Assembly (NCBI GenBank): GCA_036825435.1
Contig: DAISYG010000025.1
Location: 1 to 23,417, forward strand
Direction of reading: 5' to 3'
Length of the DNA: 23,417 nt
DNA from: Casimicrobiaceae bacterium
Lineage (GTDB): Bacteria; Pseudomonadota; Gammaproteobacteria; Burkholderiales; Casimicrobiaceae
In this document: positions 4,374 through 18,950 of the stretch, piece by piece
How positions within the stretch are numbered: the stretch's first letter is position 1
How the letters are laid out: each line of letters starts with the position of its first letter
Notes under the pieces: model-generated
Seen by the model: only the letters and a program-made list of their open reading frames with translations
Databases searched by the model: none
Told to the model about the DNA's origin: nothing
Position numbers and translations under genes: made by a program

Positions 4374-4464
4374 TGGCGGAGAGAGCGGGATTCGAACCCG
4401 CGTCAGGGTATTCCCCTGAACACGCTTTCCAGGCGTGCGATTTAAACCACTCATCCATCTCTCC
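4374..4464 (-). tRNA. tRNA-Ser (anticodon GGA)
   Basis: The reverse complement reads GGAGAGATGGATGAGTGGTTTAAATCGCACGCCTGGAAAGCGTGTTCAGGGGAATACCCTGACGCGGGTTCGAATCCCGCTCTCTCCGCCA. It has a long variable arm, anticodon loop CTGGAAA, and a perfect 7-bp acceptor stem. CCA is encoded. Confidence 0.9.
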
Positions 4465-12500: not shown

Positions 12501-13364
12501 TTATTGTAGTCCATCCGAATATAAATGTACGGTTTCCCGCAAAAAGTGATCCAGTTCCTCGACGTTCTTGTGCTCCATTTTCTGCTCAAAATCATTTGAA
12601 GCAAGGCGATTCAGTTCCTGCTCGATAAATGCATGGATACCCGGCCAGCGCTCACTGTATTCCGCTTCACCGGAACGCATTTTAATATCCAGCAGACGAT
12701 TGATTTCATCAAGCAGCGCCGGATCGTCCAGCGTACCAACAGCAAGATCGGCAAAGCGCATCGGCGGCTGGCCTTGACGGGTTTCAATCCAGCGTACCGC
12801 CAACAGCGGGCGCAAAACATACAGATATTTTTTCAGGCGCACCTGATCATCTTGCAAATAGCCACGAAAATTGCTTTTCGCCATCGTCAGATAATGGTGG
12901 TAGCCCTTCAACGATGAAAAATGCGTCTGCGCCAATACGCGCAACCGCCGAACCGTTTCCGCTTCTTCGCGGTAAACAACCGGCGAATCGAGCCATTCCA
13001 GCAACACCGGATTGGATCGCAACAATAACTGCAACGTCTTGCGCAGTTCCCAACCATTGATATCAAGCGCATCATCAATGGGCAATTCGATGACATCGCG
13101 CTGAGGTTCAACCGACAGATACCATGGCAAACGAGGCACATAGATGAAGCGTACATCGTAATCGCTGTCCGGTGATGCAAAGCCCCAGGCACGGCTTCCC
13201 GATTCACAGGCATAAAGGATCGTGACCTCGTACTTTCGTTCGATGCCCTGCAATGATTGCACGATGGCAGCACGTACGTTTTCATCAATGGGATGATTGC
13301 TTGATATTTTCGGGTTCATTTGCCTGACCGTTTCTTCATTTGTCTTCTTCACCCTTTCACACAC
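12501..13364 (-). CDS. Pol-beta-superfamily nucleotidyltransferase, RtcB-associated. It is the last gene of the rtc operon.
   Basis: 287 aa. Nucleotidyltransferase motif YACESGSRAWGFASPDSDYDVRF (GS...DxD). The start overlaps the rtcB 3' end by 16 nt (GTG at 13364). An alternative ATG at 13319 would give 272 aa. Confidence 0.75.
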   Translation of the reverse strand: MCERVKKTNEETVRQMNPKISSNHPIDENVRAAIVQSLQGIERKYEVTILYACESGSRAWGFASPDSDYDVRFIYVPRLPWYLSVEPQRDVIELPIDDALDINGWELRKTLQLLLRSNPVLLEWLDSPVVYREEAETVRRLRVLAQTHFSSLKGYHHYLTMAKSNFRGYLQDDQVRLKKYLYVLRPLLAVRWIETRQGQPPMRFADLAVGTLDDPALLDEINRLLDIKMRSGEAEYSERWPGIHAFIEQELNRLASNDFEQKMEHKNVEELDHFLRETVHLYSDGLQ

Positions 13365-14581
13365 ACCACCTGCCGCAACGTATGCACCACTTCGACCAGC
13401 GAATGCTGCGCATGCATCACGGCGTCAATATCCTTGTAGGCCATCGGAATCTCGTCGATCACATCGCTGTCCTTACGGCACTCCACATGCGCCGTCGCAC
13501 GAACCTGATCGTCCACATTGAAACGACGCTTGGCCTCGTTGCGGCTCATCACCCGCCCTGCACCATGGCTGCACGAACAGAATGATTCCTCATTACCAAG
13601 ACCACGAACAATATAACTTTTGGCGCCCATGGATCCGGGGATGATACCCAACTGCCCCTTGTATGCCGACACCGCACCTTTGCGGGTAACCCAGATGTTC
13701 TCACCGAAGTGCGTTTCGCGCTGTACGTAGTTGTGGTGGCAGTTTACCGCCCCCCTATCGGTGGCAAACGGTTTGGCGATTGATGCCCGTACTGCGCTGA
13801 CCACGTTCGCCATCATCGCATCACGGTTCCGACGCGCATAATCCTGCGCCCAACCCACTGCCTCAATGTAATCATCGAAGTACTCGCTGCCTTCTTCAAA
13901 ATACGCAAGATCACGATCGGGCAGATGGATCATGTGTTTTTCCATGTCCTTTCTCGCCAGATCGATAAACAGCGTACCGATGGCATTGCCCACACCGCGC
14001 GAACCCGAATGCAGCATCAACCAGACACGCTCGCTCTCATCCAGACATACCTCGATAAAATGGTTGCCCGTTCCCAGCGTTCCCAGGTGTTTATGGTTGT
14101 TCGTGTTTTTCAGGCACGGGTATTTTTCGGTGATGCGCTCGAACCCGGGCAGCAACGCCGTCCACATCGCGTCAACGTTCTGCGGCGTATCGTGCCACGA
14201 CCCTTTATCACGCTTGCCCCTTGATACTTCACGCCCATGCGGTACCGCTTTTTCAATCGCGCAACGCAATGCATACAGGCTATCCGGGAGGTCGGAAGCC
14301 GTCAGCGTGGTGCGCGTTGCCATCATGCCACAACCGATATCCACACCGACTGCCGCCGGGATGATCGCAGCCTGCGTCGGGATCACACTGCCGATGGTCG
14401 AGCCCTTACCGAGATGCACGTCCGGCATGACCGCCAGGTGATGGAAGATGAATGGCATCTGTGCCGTCGCCAGCAATTGTTTGCGCGCGCCATCCTCCAC
14501 CGGCACACCCTGCGTCCACATTTTGATTGCCGCGCTGCCTTCCTGTTCAATAATGTTGTAGTCCATTTTCACTTCATTCAT
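13349..14581 (-). CDS. rtcB: RNA 3'-phosphate/2',3'-cyclic phosphate ligase RtcB (RNA-splicing ligase)
   Basis: 410 aa. The N-terminus MNEVKMDYNIIEQEGSAAIKMWTQGVPVEDGARKQLLATAQMPFIFHHLAVMPDVHLGKGSTIGSVIPT is collinear with E. coli RtcB. Metal-binding NCHHNY and the GMP-histidine motif CSHGAGR are present. The start overlaps the upstream Zn-ribbon gene by 8 nt. Confidence 0.95.
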   Translation of the reverse strand: MNEVKMDYNIIEQEGSAAIKMWTQGVPVEDGARKQLLATAQMPFIFHHLAVMPDVHLGKGSTIGSVIPTQAAIIPAAVGVDIGCGMMATRTTLTASDLPDSLYALRCAIEKAVPHGREVSRGKRDKGSWHDTPQNVDAMWTALLPGFERITEKYPCLKNTNNHKHLGTLGTGNHFIEVCLDESERVWLMLHSGSRGVGNAIGTLFIDLARKDMEKHMIHLPDRDLAYFEEGSEYFDDYIEAVGWAQDYARRNRDAMMANVVSAVRASIAKPFATDRGAVNCHHNYVQRETHFGENIWVTRKGAVSAYKGQLGIIPGSMGAKSYIVRGLGNEESFCSCSHGAGRVMSRNEAKRRFNVDDQVRATAHVECRKDSDVIDEIPMAYKDIDAVMHAQHSLVEVVHTLRQVVCVKG

Positions 14582-14939
14582 TGATTATCTTTCTTTCCAT
14601 CTTTTTCATTTTTCCTGCTTCACTGATTCTACGTGCCTCGGCTTTCCGTTGTCGTTCCTTTGCACGACAAGCCCGGCAACGCACTGCGATCGAGTCAGGA
14701 TTTCCACGCATTTGCTCATACCAGCGCTTCCGCCGTGCGGCATACCAGATTTCCTCTTTTCCACAATCCTTGCAAGTGAACGGAAAATCTTCATAATAGC
14801 CTTCGGGAAAACGCATCGACAGAACCCATGCATCCCAGGGATCCAATCCTTCGGTATTTACCGGTACCCGCTGATGATTTTTCTCCAGAAAACTTTTCTT
14901 TCTTTGCTTTCTGGCGGATACTTTTTTCTTGATACTCAT
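14574..14939 (-). CDS. Small basic zinc-ribbon protein (two CxxC pairs), translationally coupled to rtcB.
   Basis: 121 aa from ATG 14939 (MSIKKK...), with a GGGAG SD 5 nt upstream. The ORF track starts at 14957. Motifs FTCKDCGKEE and VRCRACRAKE form a C4 zinc ribbon. The termini are lysine/arginine-rich. I recognise no family. Confidence 0.6.
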   Translation of the reverse strand: MSIKKKVSARKQRKKSFLEKNHQRVPVNTEGLDPWDAWVLSMRFPEGYYEDFPFTCKDCGKEEIWYAARRKRWYEQMRGNPDSIAVRCRACRAKERQRKAEARRISEAGKMKKMERKIINE

Positions 14940-15074
14940 CATCGCTCCCAAAATCACATGTCAGAGAACAGGCATCAGACATCAGTAAAAGTATCTCTTC
15001 GCTCTGACTGAAAAACTTCTATCTCCGATCAAGCCCAAAAGTTTCCTTGTTCTCCGCAACATCCAAAATATCGG

Positions 15075-15220
15075 CGTCATTCCCGCGCAGGCGGGAATCC
15101 AGCCCACATTGATCAATAAAGATCATCCCGCCATTTCGGATTACCTTTTCGATAGCGCACAATTTCCACCGACCGTTTCCACAATCGTTTTTCTGGATTC
15201 CCGCCTGCGCGGGAATGACG
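15075..15220. repeat. Small MITE-like element. Perfect 26-bp terminal inverted repeats, each containing a dRS3-like ATTCCC-N8-GGGAAT hairpin, flank a 94-bp core.
   Basis: 15075-15100 CGTCATTCCCGCGCAGGCGGGAATCC is the exact reverse complement of 15195-15220. Each arm is itself a hairpin (CCCGC-gcag-GCGGG). It lies in the 340-nt gap between the SPFH gene and the Zn-ribbon gene. The architecture resembles neisserial dRS3/NIME repeats. Confidence 0.55.
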
Positions 15221-15299
15221 CCACAATGTTGGAGAAGCCTTCTGCTCTTCGCTCTCTGTCATCTGTAGCAGGGGAGGCAAATTCCTCCCCTACCATCCT

Positions 15300-16550
15300 T
15301 TAACCAGCCTTCAGCGACACCAGACCATTCAACACCTGATCCAGGCCACCCACCACCGAAATGCGGTCGATCCGTTCGGCCACGCGCTCCAGGGTTTCCA
15401 GTTCCTTGAGGCGCAACGCCACCGGGTTGTCTTCCATCACCTTGGCGGTATTGAGCAGCGAACGTGTTGCGTTGGTTTCTTCACGACGGCGGATCACGTT
15501 GGCTTCCGCCACTTTCTGCGCTTCCACCACGCGGGCAAGAATATCCTTCATCTCGCCCGGCAGCACGATATCGCGCACGCCGAGGCTCATCACTTCAAGA
15601 CCAAAACCTTCCAGTTTGGTTTTCAAATGTGCGCTGACCATCTCATCAATACTCTGCTTGTTTTCAAGAATCGCATCGAGCGTACGCGTACCCACTGCCG
15701 CACGCAAACCGAACTGCAATTCGCGGTACAAGTATTCAACCGGCTTGTTGACCTGCGCAAACGCCAGTGCCACATCGGTAAAGCGCCAGTTGGCCACCAG
15801 CGTCAGACGCAAACCAACGCGATCCTTGGTCAGGATTTCCTGACCGCTGACCTCCATCGCCTGCAAACGCGTATCCACCAGTTCAAGTTGCACCTCACGG
15901 TTGAAGCGCCAGAATGCACGCAAGCCGGGCGACAACAATTGCTCCACCTTGCCGTCGATGCGCAACACACCAACATGGTACGCGGGCACCTGCGCGACCA
16001 ACACGCCGTCCAGACCGATCACCGCACGGTTTTTCAGGTTGGCCGCGTTGAGCTGCTTCGCCACCTTTTCGGGCAATTCGGTATGGTCTTCCAGCTTGAA
16101 ACGCTCCAAACGGTGCTGCTTCAAACCTTTCCAGACATAGTGCCGTGCGCCCGGTGCCAACACCTCAACAAGGATATCGTTCTCAAAACGCAAACCTGTT
16201 TCATTTTCTTCCAGCACCATGGTGATGAAATGTTCTTCCGCAACCTGCGGATCATTCATCAGCAAATATTCCACCACATGATTTGCATGCATCACGCTGT
16301 CCTGTACGCAATTGCCCATCGTCCGTCTTTTCAGCGGATCGAACAGCCAATAGCGGCCAGGCGCAAGAATCCGTTCAAAATCGTCATCACGAAACAAAGT
16401 GCCCTTTTCGTTGTGCTTCACAACATATCTTTTGAAAAACAACATATTCATTCTCCCATCAATCGCCAACCTGTCGCCGGTTCGACGGACTTCCTTCTCG
16501 GCACCTGCGAGGAGGCTCATCACAAAATCCATGTTCATCTGGCAGCGCAC
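15300..16550 (-). CDS. SPFH/band-7 (stomatin/HflKC-like) domain protein. It has an uncharacterised N-terminal domain of about 170 aa and no TM anchor. It is the first protein gene of the RtcR-controlled operon.
   Basis: 416 aa. The C-terminal half carries the SPFH signature: VLRIDGKVEQLLSPGLRAFWRF...ILTKDRVGLRLTLVANWR...LGVRDIVLPGEMKDILARVVEAQKVAEANVIRRREETNATRSLLNTAKVM. I see no hydrophobic helix. The start is uncertain, with several in-frame Met in the first 11 codons and no clear SD. Confidence 0.75.
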   Translation of the reverse strand: MRCQMNMDFVMSLLAGAEKEVRRTGDRLAIDGRMNMLFFKRYVVKHNEKGTLFRDDDFERILAPGRYWLFDPLKRRTMGNCVQDSVMHANHVVEYLLMNDPQVAEEHFITMVLEENETGLRFENDILVEVLAPGARHYVWKGLKQHRLERFKLEDHTELPEKVAKQLNAANLKNRAVIGLDGVLVAQVPAYHVGVLRIDGKVEQLLSPGLRAFWRFNREVQLELVDTRLQAMEVSGQEILTKDRVGLRLTLVANWRFTDVALAFAQVNKPVEYLYRELQFGLRAAVGTRTLDAILENKQSIDEMVSAHLKTKLEGFGLEVMSLGVRDIVLPGEMKDILARVVEAQKVAEANVIRRREETNATRSLLNTAKVMEDNPVALRLKELETLERVAERIDRISVVGGLDQVLNGLVSLKAG

Positions 16551-16698
16551 GGTGTTGCTGTGCTTGCGAGGTTCACACCGACTTCATCATTCGCTTCGTC
16601 ACCGATGCAGATTGGGCGTCGGCCAAACCGGCGGCGGCGCTTGCGCGATCCGCAGTCGGCAGGTATTACATTTATAAAAGTGTCATCAAGAATGACTT

Positions 16699-16789
16699 GC
16701 TTTGGAGCGGGACTTGAACCCGCGACAGACCGATTCCTCGTCGGTTACTCTATCCAACTGAGCTATCCAAATACGGGATTCGAACCCAT
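16699..16789 (-). ncRNA. tRNA-like element (tRNA mimic or pseudo-tRNA) in the leader of the rtc operon. A 74-nt cloverleaf is preceded by an extra T-arm-like hairpin.
   Basis: Minus strand: ATTTGGA-TA-GCTC-AGTTGGATA-GAGT-A-ACCGA-CGAGGAA-TCGGT-CTGTC-GCGGG-TTCAAGT-CCCGC-TCCAAAG-C. The D-arm, T-arm, U8, G18G19 and C48 are canonical. The anticodon loop has G33 and anticodon AGG. The acceptor stem has an A1xG72 mismatch. No CCA is encoded. Immediately 5' of it (16773-16789) lies ATGGGTTCGAATCCCGT, a second T-arm-like hairpin. Confidence 0.5.
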
Positions 16790-16874
16790 GCCTTAACGGT
16801 TTCCAATAGACAAGCATCAAACAGCAGCGGCATACGCACAGACAACAGCCGAAGTCCGGTTCGTGCGCACCGGT

Positions 16875-17156
16875 GGGGCTAGAGCGTGCCGACACGAGTT
16901 TTGCTATTGTCATTGATCGGCACGGCGGGCCAGACAAGGCGGAAAACGCAACGCATGGTGGTTCCCATGGGCAAGTTTTCCAACGCAGTATGGCGCGCTG
17001 TGCCGTTCAACCCGAAGGGCTGGCACTGGTAAACAGCCATTCTTCGTCATTCGTCGTTTATTTGGATTAACCAAACTGCTCTCCTCATTCCTCGACTAGC
17101 CGCTTACCAGTACCAGTGGCAACAACAAAACCCGTGTCGGCACGCTCTAGAACCCC
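16875..17156. repeat. Long-range 22-24-bp inverted repeat (GGGGCTAGAGCGTGCCGACACG / CGTGTCGGCACGCTCTAGAACCCC) enclosing about 235 nt of non-coding sequence in the rtc operon leader.
   Basis: Bases 16875-16898 pair with 17133-17156, with 18 contiguous identical base pairs plus a flanking GGGG/CCCC. This would form a long closing stem in the minus-strand transcript. The only ORF inside (16873..17070 +, 65 aa) is on the wrong strand and has no support. Confidence 0.5.
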
Positions 17157-17200
17157 GAACCTGTCAGCCAGTGTTTGACCATCATGTCTGCCTTCTTTAT

Positions 17201-17216
17201 TGCCAGTTCTGTGCCA
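17201..17216 (-). promoter_or_regulatory. Sigma54 (RpoN) promoter driving the rtc operon leftwards, presumably activated by RtcR.
   Basis: The minus strand reads TTGGCACAGAACTGGCAAT. The -24 element TGGCAC and the -12 element TGGCA, separated by 5 nt, match the consensus TGGCAC-N5-TTGCA at 9 of 10 core positions. It lies about 145 nt upstream of the divergent rtcR start, with an AT-rich region in between. Confidence 0.6.
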
Positions 17217-17360
17217 ATAAATCGCTGACGCTGAAAATAACTGCAAGTCTTTGTATTAACAGATATAAAATTTTTTCATGAGTTTCTGCTATCAAATTTC
17301 CCCATTCATTTTTCTATTTTTGCTAGAATATTTGATATATTTTTATATAAAATGATAATC

Positions 17361-18950
17361 ATGAAGAAGACGGTGGTCATCGGTTTTCTCGGCACGCAGC
17401 TCGACAATGGCGGACGCGGCAGCGACCGTTGGAAAAAATGGCGCCCCAGCATCGCCATCTGCCAGCAGGAAAATCTGCCCGTACATCGGATTGAGTTGAT
17501 TCACGATGCACGCAGCCGCAGTCTGGCGGGGCGCGTCGCCGAGGACATCGTTTCGGTATCGCCACACACCGAGGTGCGGCACATCGAAAAACAATTACGC
17601 GACCCCTGGGACTTTGAAGAGGTCTATACGCTGTTGCTTGATCTGGCGCGCTCGTACCCGTTCGACACCGAAAACGAAAACTATCTGATTCACATCACCA
17701 CCGGCACGCACGTCGCGCAGATCTGCTGGTATCTGCTCACCGAAGCACATTATTTTCCAGCGCAACTGTTGCAGGCATCGCCACCACTCAACCGTAAAGG
17801 CGTGCTCGACCGTGCAGGCACGCATGCGATTATTGATCTGGATCTTTCCCGCTACGACAAAATCGCACAGCGTTTTCGCGTCGAGCAAGCCGATACCGTC
17901 AGCCGCCTCAAGTCCGGCATTGCCACACGCAACCCCGCGTTCAATACCATGATCGAACGCATTGAGCGGGTGGCCGGACGTTCGCGCGCGCCGATGCTGC
18001 TGGTCGGCCCCACCGGAGCGGGCAAATCATTCCTCGCGCAACGCGTTTATGAATTGAAACGTGAGCGACAACAACTCAAAGGCCGCTTCGTCGAAGTCAA
18101 CTGTGCCACGCTGCGCGGAGATGCTGCGATGTCGGCATTGTTCGGCCACGTCAAAGGCGCGTTTACCGGCGCACAGTCGGAACGCGCCGGGTTGCTGCGC
18201 TCGGCGCACGGCGGCGTGCTGTTCCTCGACGAAATCGCCGAACTGGGACAGGACGAACAGGCGATGCTGCTCAAGGCCATTGAGGAAAAACACTTTCTTC
18301 CGTTCGGTGGCGACAACGAGGTCAGCAGCGATTTCCAACTCATCGCCGGTACGCACCGCGATTTGAGGCAGCGCGTTCGTGAAGGACTTTTCCGCGAAGA
18401 TTTGTACGCCCGCATCAACCTGTGGACGTTCACCCTGCCCGGTCTTGCCAAACGCACCGAAGATATCGAGCCGAACCTGGATTACGAACTTGAGCGTTAC
18501 GCATGCGATTACGGTGTACAGGTTCGCTTCAATGTCGAAGCGCGCCGCCATTACCTGACATTCGCCTGCTCCACCGAAGCGCAATGGCCCGGCAACTTTC
18601 GTGAATTGACTTCCAGCGTTACCCGCATGGCAACGCTATCGACGGGTGGGCGCATCACCGAGCAAGATGTTCTCGATGAAATCGCCCGTTTGCGCGAAAG
18701 CTGGCACGAGCCTGCCCGTGCGGATCAGGTTGCCGTCGTGCTGGGCGATGCTGCACAGACCATCGACCTGTTTGACCGCTGCCAGCTCAATACCGTACTG
18801 CGGGTTTGCCACGACAGCCGAACCCTGTCAGAAGCCGGACGCACCTTGTTCGCTGCGTCGCGTCAACACAAAAAACAAACCAATGACGCCGACCGCCTGC
18901 GCAAATATCTGCTGCGCTTCGGACTGGATTGGGAGGCGGTACATCGGTGA
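17361..18950 (+). CDS. rtcR: RtcR: sigma54-dependent transcriptional activator with an N-terminal CARF domain, an AAA+ domain and a C-terminal HTH.
   Basis: The N-terminus MKKTVVIGFLGTQLDNGGRGSDRWKKWRPSIAICQQ...YLIHITTGTHVAQICWYLL is collinear with E. coli RtcR. Walker A GPTGAGKS. Sigma54-interaction motif GAFTGA. The ORF track starts at 17352 (MIIMKK...). 17361 matches the E. coli start and gives 529 aa. Confidence 0.9.
   Translation: MKKTVVIGFLGTQLDNGGRGSDRWKKWRPSIAICQQENLPVHRIELIHDARSRSLAGRVAEDIVSVSPHTEVRHIEKQLRDPWDFEEVYTLLLDLARSYPFDTENENYLIHITTGTHVAQICWYLLTEAHYFPAQLLQASPPLNRKGVLDRAGTHAIIDLDLSRYDKIAQRFRVEQADTVSRLKSGIATRNPAFNTMIERIERVAGRSRAPMLLVGPTGAGKSFLAQRVYELKRERQQLKGRFVEVNCATLRGDAAMSALFGHVKGAFTGAQSERAGLLRSAHGGVLFLDEIAELGQDEQAMLLKAIEEKHFLPFGGDNEVSSDFQLIAGTHRDLRQRVREGLFREDLYARINLWTFTLPGLAKRTEDIEPNLDYELERYACDYGVQVRFNVEARRHYLTFACSTEAQWPGNFRELTSSVTRMATLSTGGRITEQDVLDEIARLRESWHEPARADQVAVVLGDAAQTIDLFDRCQLNTVLRVCHDSRTLSEAGRTLFAASRQHKKQTNDADRLRKYLLRFGLDWEAVHR

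Follow-up and report, generated by a model that had tools for sequence, protein, structure and literature searches.

A probable Band-7/b7a-tRNA-type RNA-repair operon with an extended covarying leader RNA in a Casimicrobiaceae contig

Introduction

Does an rtcB operon that contains neither rtcA nor rsr, and instead carries genes for an SPFH (Band-7) protein, a zinc ribbon and a nucleotidyltransferase, represent a new kind of RNA-repair system, or is it a variant of one that has already been described? This question is raised by a 23,417-nucleotide (nt) stretch of DNA from a Casimicrobiaceae bacterium (GenBank assembly GCA_036825435.1, contig DAISYG010000025.1, positions 1 to 23,417 of the forward strand), the whole of which is called the window here. 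The original prediction, made from the sequence of the window, described an RNA damage-response operon under the control of RtcR and sigma-54, called its gene set unusual and regarded it as a distinct, possibly undescribed module.

An association of this kind is on record. According to three later sources (bioRxiv 10.1101/312249, PMC12776372 and PMC6514570), Burroughs and Aravind (2016) described a Band-7 protein and a tRNA-like RNA, b7a-tRNA, adjoining RtcB, and PMC12776372 credits the same work (Nucleic Acids Res 44:8525) with naming PF10127 RlaP for its place in RNA-ligase operons. Here we report that the locus in the window is very probably an RtcR/sigma-54-controlled RNA-repair operon of the Band-7/b7a-tRNA class of RtcB systems. 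Its gene set has been known since 2016, and the locus is a further member of a known, poorly understood system. Our own observations concern its anatomy, its conservation and the structure of its RNA, and the functional steps considered in the Discussion draw on inference and published hypothesis.

Results

Gene content and conserved neighbourhood

Positions are given in the numbering of the 23.4-kilobase window, in which the operon genes lie on the (-) strand and rtcR on the (+) strand. Profile searches yielded domain assignments for all five proteins. Counted from the promoter, the order is a leader RNA with a tRNA-like element, the SPFH/Band-7 gene (15300-16451), the C4 zinc-ribbon gene (14574-14939), rtcB (13349-14581) and rlaP (12501-13319), and because the end of a convergent amino-acid permease gene follows 154 nt after rlaP, we place the end of the operon after rlaP. 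Pfam scans of the sizeable open reading frames (ORFs) of the window found no RTC (RtcA) domain and no TROVE (Rsr) domain, the other ORFs being housekeeping genes only, and a tblastn search of the window with RtcA from a related locus gave no match, in agreement with the original prediction that rtcA and rsr are absent. RtcR was the only operon protein recognised by PADLOC, and the operon is not in the PADLOC defence catalogue.

When one genome per species was scanned, at least 560 stretches proved to encode close SPFH relatives; 80 loci were fetched, and their content was determined by tblastn with the window's proteins and with RtcA recovered from the fetched loci. Among the 80 loci, RtcR was divergent in 61, at a nearly constant distance of 585-776 nt, and RtcB lay directly 3' of Band-7 and in the same orientation in about 68. 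About 25 loci had a zinc ribbon (ZnR) between Band-7 and RtcB, about 40 had RlaP, and 31 had RtcA. The shared synteny can be written as RtcR<Band7>[ZnR]>RtcB>[RlaP]>[RtcA], with the bracketed genes optional, and it was found in Rhodocyclales, Burkholderia, Pseudomonas and other groups.

Full flanks were available for 74 loci, namely the window and 73 relatives. The arrangements among them included RtcR<Band7>RtcB>RlaP (13 loci), RtcR<Band7>RtcB>RlaP>RtcA (12), RtcR<Band7>ZnR>RtcB>RlaP>RtcA (11), Band7>RtcB (7), RtcR<Band7>RtcB (6), RtcR<Band7>RtcB>RtcA (5) and RtcR<Band7>ZnR>RtcB (3). The gene rtcA was commonly lacking, for example in Burkholderia and several Pseudomonas, and 22 RtcR-linked loci with full flanks were without it. 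Its absence from the operon in the window is ordinary variation.

These counts bear on the proposal that an SPFH protein, a zinc ribbon, RtcB and a nucleotidyltransferase without RtcA define a distinct, previously undescribed module. The window differs from the 11-locus architecture only in lacking RtcA, and its exact set, with zinc ribbon and RlaP and without RtcA, was seen in the window only among the 74 loci, which is what speaks for the proposal. We nevertheless consider it very improbable, as the components and their linkage have been published and are present in P. aeruginosa PAO1, 11 loci have the same set plus RtcA, and 13 have Band-7, RtcB and RlaP without RtcA. A neighbourhood search for the SPFH, zinc-ribbon and nucleotidyltransferase combination confirmed a widespread set and removed its novelty: the literature, PAO1 genes PA4581-PA4585 and the surveyed loci all present it as a catalogued, conserved rtcB neighbourhood, and the description of the gene set as unusual does not hold. 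The window is one combination of optional accessories and not a new architecture.

RtcR and the predicted sigma-54 promoter

The rtcR gene (17352-18950, (+) strand) encodes a 532-amino-acid (aa) activator with a CARF domain, a sigma-54 AAA+ domain and a helix-turn-helix (HTH). The protein scored 830 bits against the NCBIfam model NF038308 (RNA_repair_RtcR equivalog; cut-off 650), matched Pfam PF06956 (RtcR/CARF) and PF00158 (Sigma54_activat), contained GAFTGA in its translation, and scored 862.7 bits against the PADLOC model RtcR--CARF_AAA_HTH. These results bear out the description of a divergent RtcR with CARF, AAA+ GAFTGA and HTH parts.

A candidate sigma-54 (-24/-12) promoter, TGGCACAGAACTGGCA, lies at 17216-17201 on the (-) strand and points into the operon, with the form TGGCAC-N5-TGGCA and GG-N10-GC spacing. 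It was the sole match to the sigma-54 motif in the window. The motif by itself was not significant, with at least one match in 61 of 100 shuffles of the window. When 62 leaders, the window's included, were compared, 59 of them had an equivalent motif at a matching distance from the rtcR start (about 110-275 nt, mostly 130-150), and this makes the motif credible. The near-consensus promoter first reported at 17201-17216 is accordingly present as a motif and conserved in position, and we regard it as a predicted promoter. In a simple promoter and terminator scan, sites were no more numerous than in shuffled sequence, and none of the intergenic gaps showed an internal promoter. Together, the domain profiles and the positionally conserved motif support the view that this is an RNA-damage-response operon controlled by RtcR and sigma-54.

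An SPFH protein without a membrane anchor

The SPFH/Band-7 ('slipin') gene (15300-16451, (-) strand) encodes a protein that matched PF01145 with E = 6e-31. Its homologues are about 379 aa long and align from M34/M36 of the 416-aa ORF, and we therefore place the start at ATG 16451 or 16445, which gives a protein of about 381-383 aa. The stretch 16452-16550 was considered as a coding N-terminus and rejected, because the homologues start later and the stretch is the 3' arm of a covarying rod in the leader RNA; positions 16465-16514 are RNA structure and not coding. The protein is thus shorter than the cytoplasmic SPFH protein of 416 aa in the earlier description.

No hydrophobic segment or membrane anchor was found in the protein, the best 19-residue Kyte-Doolittle mean being 1.40, whereas stomatin, HflK/C and flotillin are membrane-anchored. 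In the AF2 model (pLDDT 79.8), a beta-rich soluble N-terminal half and the SPFH domain are followed by long C-terminal helices. Most of this predicted architecture, with N-terminal beta repeats, the SPFH domain and a long helix, could be aligned to the major vault protein, and the global superposition was poor. The vault resemblance may be taken as a lead and not as an established homology. The nearest named relative is from Stenoxybacter acetivorans (72% identity), and relatives also occur in metagenome-assembled genomes (MAGs) of termite-gut betaproteobacteria. A scaffold role, which the original prediction had suggested for this protein, would agree with the published hypothesis.

A conserved, covarying leader RNA

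Between the predicted promoter and the SPFH gene lies a structured non-coding leader (16452-17190, (-) strand), whose 5' end was inferred from the position of the promoter. It is about 740-750 nt long here and about 480 nt in relatives. A non-coding leader had been recognised before and given as about 640 nt; after correction of the SPFH start it measures about 750 nt.

To examine the structure, 38 non-redundant leaders were aligned from promoter to start codon and the alignment was folded. Of the 71 consensus pairs in the fold, 52 showed compensatory changes. In the alignment, 94.2% of the cells formed a standard pair, compared to 35-46% when the partners were slid by 1-3 columns, and the covariation score was 0.445, compared to at most 0.11 when slid; none of 500 shuffles reached the observed pairing or covariation values. 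The single-sequence fold of the window's leader gave z = -7.6.

Several domains can be distinguished, all read on the (-) strand. The first hairpin, H1 (16872-17161; arms 17161-17154 and 16878-16872), has an insertion in its loop and compensatory changes in 6 of its 7 pairs. The second, H2 (16871-16829), ends in an invariant GTATGCCGC block and shows such changes in 8 of 12 pairs. At the 3' end, seven helices, H8-H14, form a rod of roughly 200 nt (16660-16465) with 32 pairs, 26 of which carry compensatory changes. The rod was recovered independently in the single-sequence minimum-free-energy fold, and it closes 14 nt 5' of the Band-7 start codon. Apart from the tRNA match, the leader is not covered by any Rfam family, and in a permissive search of 14900-17400 the only matches beyond tRNA were sub-threshold and at chance level, including YrlA (17.5 bits; threshold 69). 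Conservation and strong covariation extend over the whole sigma-54 leader, a multi-domain RNA of which the tRNA-like element is only one part.

The tRNA-like elements

Between H2 and the rod, a tRNA-like cloverleaf, the b7a-tRNA, occupies 16699-16772 on the (-) strand. The tRNA-like element noted in the original prediction was recovered by both Rfam (tRNA, 46.5 bits) and ARAGORN, which called it 'tRNA-Pro(agg)'. Two ordinary tRNA genes in the window served as an internal comparison: tRNA-Met(CAT) (685-761, (-) strand) and tRNA-Ser(GGA) (4374-4464, (-) strand) scored 64.1 and 61.6 bits.

The calls of ARAGORN and of the Rfam tRNA model, and the annotation of the PAO1 equivalent as tRNA-Arg4, would fit a genuine decoding tRNA-Pro(AGG) in an intergenic region, with the SPFH gene as an unrelated membrane-scaffold neighbour. 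The element itself argues otherwise: it has G in place of the universal U33, a mismatched 1:72 pair and no encoded CCA. In bacteria, A at anticodon position 34 is generally restricted to tRNA-Arg(ACG), and an AGG proline anticodon would therefore be exceptional. The orthologues point in the same direction. ARAGORN found an orthologous element at a fixed position in 50 of the 62 leaders, with about 15 different 'anticodons' and many loops of 6 or 8 nt, and flagged many with abnormal 2- or 4-base 'anticodons'. Across orders, hardly any change is seen in the acceptor stem (TTGGA/TCCAA), D arm and T arm, in contrast to a freely variable anticodon arm. The SPFH protein, for its part, is without a membrane anchor and syntenic with rtcB in most of the surveyed loci, as described above. 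A decoding tRNA beside an unrelated gene is thus extremely improbable, and judged from these sequence features the element at 16699-16772 is a tRNA mimic. It also stands 5' of Band-7 in 14 of the 17 loci without an adjacent rtcR.

Upstream of the cloverleaf, a T-arm-like hairpin, GGGTTCGAATCCC (16774-16789, (-) strand), is the remnant of a second, D-arm-less tRNA-like module. Most relatives have this module (L013, L018, L041, L056 and L063 among others), which consists of an acceptor stem, a short hairpin and a T arm and in Pseudomonas is a full cloverleaf; the Pseudomonas loci fetched here have two cloverleaves in tandem. In the window's module (16774-16828), the acceptor strand is missing and the T-arm hairpin alone survives.

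Zinc ribbon, RtcB and RlaP

The zinc-ribbon gene (14574-14939, (-) strand) encodes a basic protein of 121 aa, according to the gene call on the JGI metagenome contig that corresponds to the window (PaHGMunAill_c0000339, sample 3300000059), with a CxxC...CxxC arrangement and a match to PF13451 (zf_Tbcl) at E = 3.5e-10. As the original prediction had it, the gene starts at ATG 14939, encodes a C4 zinc ribbon and overlaps the rtcB start (14581) by 8 nt, ending at 14574.

The rtcB gene (13349-14581, (-) strand) encodes a 3'-phosphate/5'-OH RNA ligase (PF01139, E = 1.4e-129). Its metal- and GMP-binding motifs mpDvHlGkG, GtGNHF, HsGSRG and c..HGAGR align to solved RtcB structures, which agrees with the reported intactness of the enzyme. 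In the termite-gut MAG loci that are closest by Band-7 identity (L003, L004, L005 and L007), the RtcB found 3' of Band-7/ZnR is only 29-34% identical to that of the window and represents a different paralogue, and L003 has an RtcB of 72% identity beyond rtcR, on its other side. A swap or rearrangement of the ligase appears to have taken place within this lineage.

The rlaP gene (12501-13319, (-) strand) encodes a Pol-beta nucleotidyltransferase of 272 aa. A profile search placed it in PF10127 (RlaP) with 327.7 bits against a cut-off of 23, over profile positions 2-248 of 249 and hence at full length, and the Pol-beta motif GS...DxD lies in ESGSRAWGFASPDSDYD; the guess that it might belong to an RlaP-like, RtcB-linked family proved correct. 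Relatives share homology with the long ORF from residues 19-24 onwards, with the Met of the relatives just upstream, and the JGI call is also 272 aa, on which grounds we take ATG 13319 as the start. The alternative start GTG 13364 was rejected. As ATG 13319 lies 29 nt after the rtcB stop, the overlap of the two genes that had been reported does not exist. A sequence search of the PDB found no solved relatives for RlaP or the zinc-ribbon protein, and no NCBIfam model matches either. Some Pseudomonas loci carry extra conserved genes between rtcB and rlaP, encoding a 192-aa protein (6 loci; L056 9809-10387) or a 459-aa helical-repeat-like protein (5 loci; L076 9856-11235).

Two repeat insertions

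Two repeat elements interrupt the operon, one in the leader and the other between the SPFH gene and the zinc-ribbon gene, and both are secondary events. The leader carries an inverted repeat of 272 nt (16879-17150), with 37-nt arms (16879-16915 and 17114-17150) and CTAG at both ends, which adds 268 nt net. It is missing from all aligned relatives and sits exactly in the loop of H1, which can still form around it and is predicted by the single-sequence fold. No second copy was found in the window, and a terminal-repeat scan of metagenomes found none. We call it an insertion because every relative is without it, and not because copies were seen elsewhere; its mobility is suggested by its structure. 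The long inverted repeat of the original prediction is therefore real, but it is a 268-nt insertion specific to the window and not a native feature of the leader.

The second element (15062-15233) is a palindromic sequence of 172 nt resembling miniature inverted-repeat transposable elements (MITEs) or repetitive extragenic palindromes (REPs), with 41-nt arms (15062-15102 and 15193-15233) that are 90% complementary, in line with the MITE that had been reported in this gap. At least 120 metagenome contigs, drawn from many environments (L082-L161 among them), contain its 27-nt core, GTCATTCCCGCGCAGGCGGGAATCCAG, and the element has a sub-threshold Rfam match to WsnRNA46 (50.1 bits against 65.3). 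The unusual length of the gap in which it lies is accounted for by this element, which is a common palindromic repeat. A short run of T follows its hairpin.

Discussion

The gene order, its conservation and the leader structure make it very likely that the window carries a Band-7/b7a-tRNA system, and a working scheme can be drawn from what is known of its parts. Damaged RNA, such as tRNA halves with 2',3'-cyclic-phosphate (2',3'>P) ends, would be sensed by the CARF domain of RtcR, as work on RtcR of Salmonella and E. coli suggests, and RtcR would then activate the predicted sigma-54 promoter at 17216-17201. The resulting transcript would open with the structured RNA, comprising two 5' hairpins, the degenerate tRNA-like module, the b7a-tRNA cloverleaf and the rod, a structure shown by covariation; probably its tRNA-like part is either excised or kept as a stable non-coding RNA. 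Analogy with stomatin, HflK/C and vault assemblies predicts a ring or cage for the soluble, anchor-less SPFH protein, and the same transcript would supply the basic zinc-ribbon protein. RtcB would seal 3'-phosphate or 2',3'>P ends to 5'-OH ends, and RlaP may restore excised 3' nucleotides. Two Pseudomonas RlaPs (from P. fluorescens and P. aeruginosa), whose genes lie between rtcB and rtcA, add one or two nucleoside monophosphates (NMPs) to RNA 3'-OH ends in vitro and prefer mimics of nicked tRNA (PMC12776372). In the hypothesis of Burroughs and Aravind, as later sources relate it, the SPFH protein and the tRNA-like RNA would serve as a scaffold or cofactor ribonucleoprotein (RNP) for the ligase, like Ro60 and Y RNA in Salmonella.

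The leader could also be read as mainly a cis-acting regulatory RNA for the Band-7/rtcB mRNA, acting in attenuation, processing or translation control, and not as the source of an RNP cofactor. In one variant, the tRNA-like modules are decoys or sentinels for anticodon nucleases, whose cleavage feeds 2',3'>P fragments back to RtcR; in another, the 3' rod gates translation of the first gene. The place where the rod closes, beside the ribosome-binding site, would suit the second variant, and the whole leader is conserved as a unit with the operon. A response of RtcR to 5' tRNA halves is on record, and since the element lies within an RtcR-controlled transcript, positive feedback is possible. The anticodon loops, in contrast, vary in sequence and length, which argues against recognition by a specific anticodon nuclease, and the presence of the element beside Band-7 at most loci that have no adjacent rtcR ties it to the protein and not to RtcR. 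We regard a mainly cis-regulatory leader as a possible but rather doubtful account; it and the cofactor model are not mutually exclusive.

Several points weigh against assigning the locus to an RNA-repair operon that works in this way. The products of RlaP end in 3'-OH and are not ligatable by RtcB, a mismatch that PMC12776372 acknowledges. Standard assays showed no phenotype when the gene for PaFlo8, the SPFH protein encoded by PA14_60630 within the rtc locus of P. aeruginosa, was deleted (PMC13086221). RtcR activation in E. coli is reported to require both RtcA and RtcB (PMC9650030), and the window has no rtcA. Binding of the tRNA-like RNA by the SPFH protein is hypothetical, and co-transcription of all four genes from the sigma-54 promoter is predicted from conserved synteny. 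Finally, the 172-nt palindromic element and its T-run could attenuate read-through to the zinc-ribbon gene.

As a discovery, the locus adds little, since its neighbourhood was published in 2016 and is found in the genetically tractable P. aeruginosa and Burkholderia. The part most worth following up is the extended leader RNA. Tentatively, and with a good deal more doubt than attaches to the class assignment, the b7a-tRNA may be one domain of a conserved RNA of about 480 nt, made up of two 5' hairpins, tandem tRNA-like modules and the rod of about 200 nt, which together with the anchor-less, partly vault-like SPFH protein could form a vault- or Ro-like RNP that organises repair by RtcB and RlaP. 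If this is true and the flanking RNA domains are undescribed, they would represent a new class of large structured RNA tied to RNA repair. The covarying multi-domain leader and the anchor-less, somewhat vault-like SPFH protein could guide experiments in model organisms.

Compared to known systems, the locus shares a divergent rtcR, a sigma-54 promoter and the RtcB ligase with the rtcR/rtcBA locus of E. coli, which, as described, has rtcA and none of the Band-7, tRNA-like RNA, zinc-ribbon and RlaP components. The rsr-yrlBA-rtcBA operon of Salmonella is, like the operon in the window, an RtcR-controlled rtcB operon that opens with a putative scaffold protein and non-coding RNAs. The two differ in that the window has no TROVE/Ro60 protein, its YrlA match is far below threshold and its scaffold has the SPFH fold. 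YrlA has a tRNA-like domain, and bioRxiv 10.1101/312249 proposes that the Band-7/b7a-tRNA pair is functionally analogous. The eukaryotic vault particle, made of the major vault protein and vault RNA, is a further system for comparison.

Band-7/b7a-tRNA systems, as later sources outline them, consist of RtcB, an SPFH/Band-7 protein and a tRNA-like RNA, with RlaP optional and RtcR/sigma-54 frequent, and all of these are present and syntenic in the window. Relative to this class, the window adds the zf_Tbcl zinc ribbon, as do about one third of its relatives, and its operon is without rtcA; erosion has affected the upstream tRNA-like module, and two repeat elements have been inserted. In P. aeruginosa, the locus comprises rtcR (PA4581), tRNA-Arg4 (PA4581.1), Band-7 (PA4582, PaFlo8), rtcB (PA4583), RlaP (PA4584) and rtcA (PA4585), and in PAO1 the CCA-less 'tRNA-Arg4' lies between rtcR and PA4582-PA4585 (PMC13637947). 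PAO1 has rtcA and the window does not, and a zinc-ribbon gene does not figure in the cited descriptions of PAO1. Related Pseudomonas loci (L052-L079) were aligned here; those fetched have two complete tandem cloverleaves, whereas the window has one plus a remnant. The order and orientation of rtcR, the tRNA-like RNA, Band-7, rtcB and rlaP are the same in P. aeruginosa and in the window, and in both the tRNA-like gene is without CCA.

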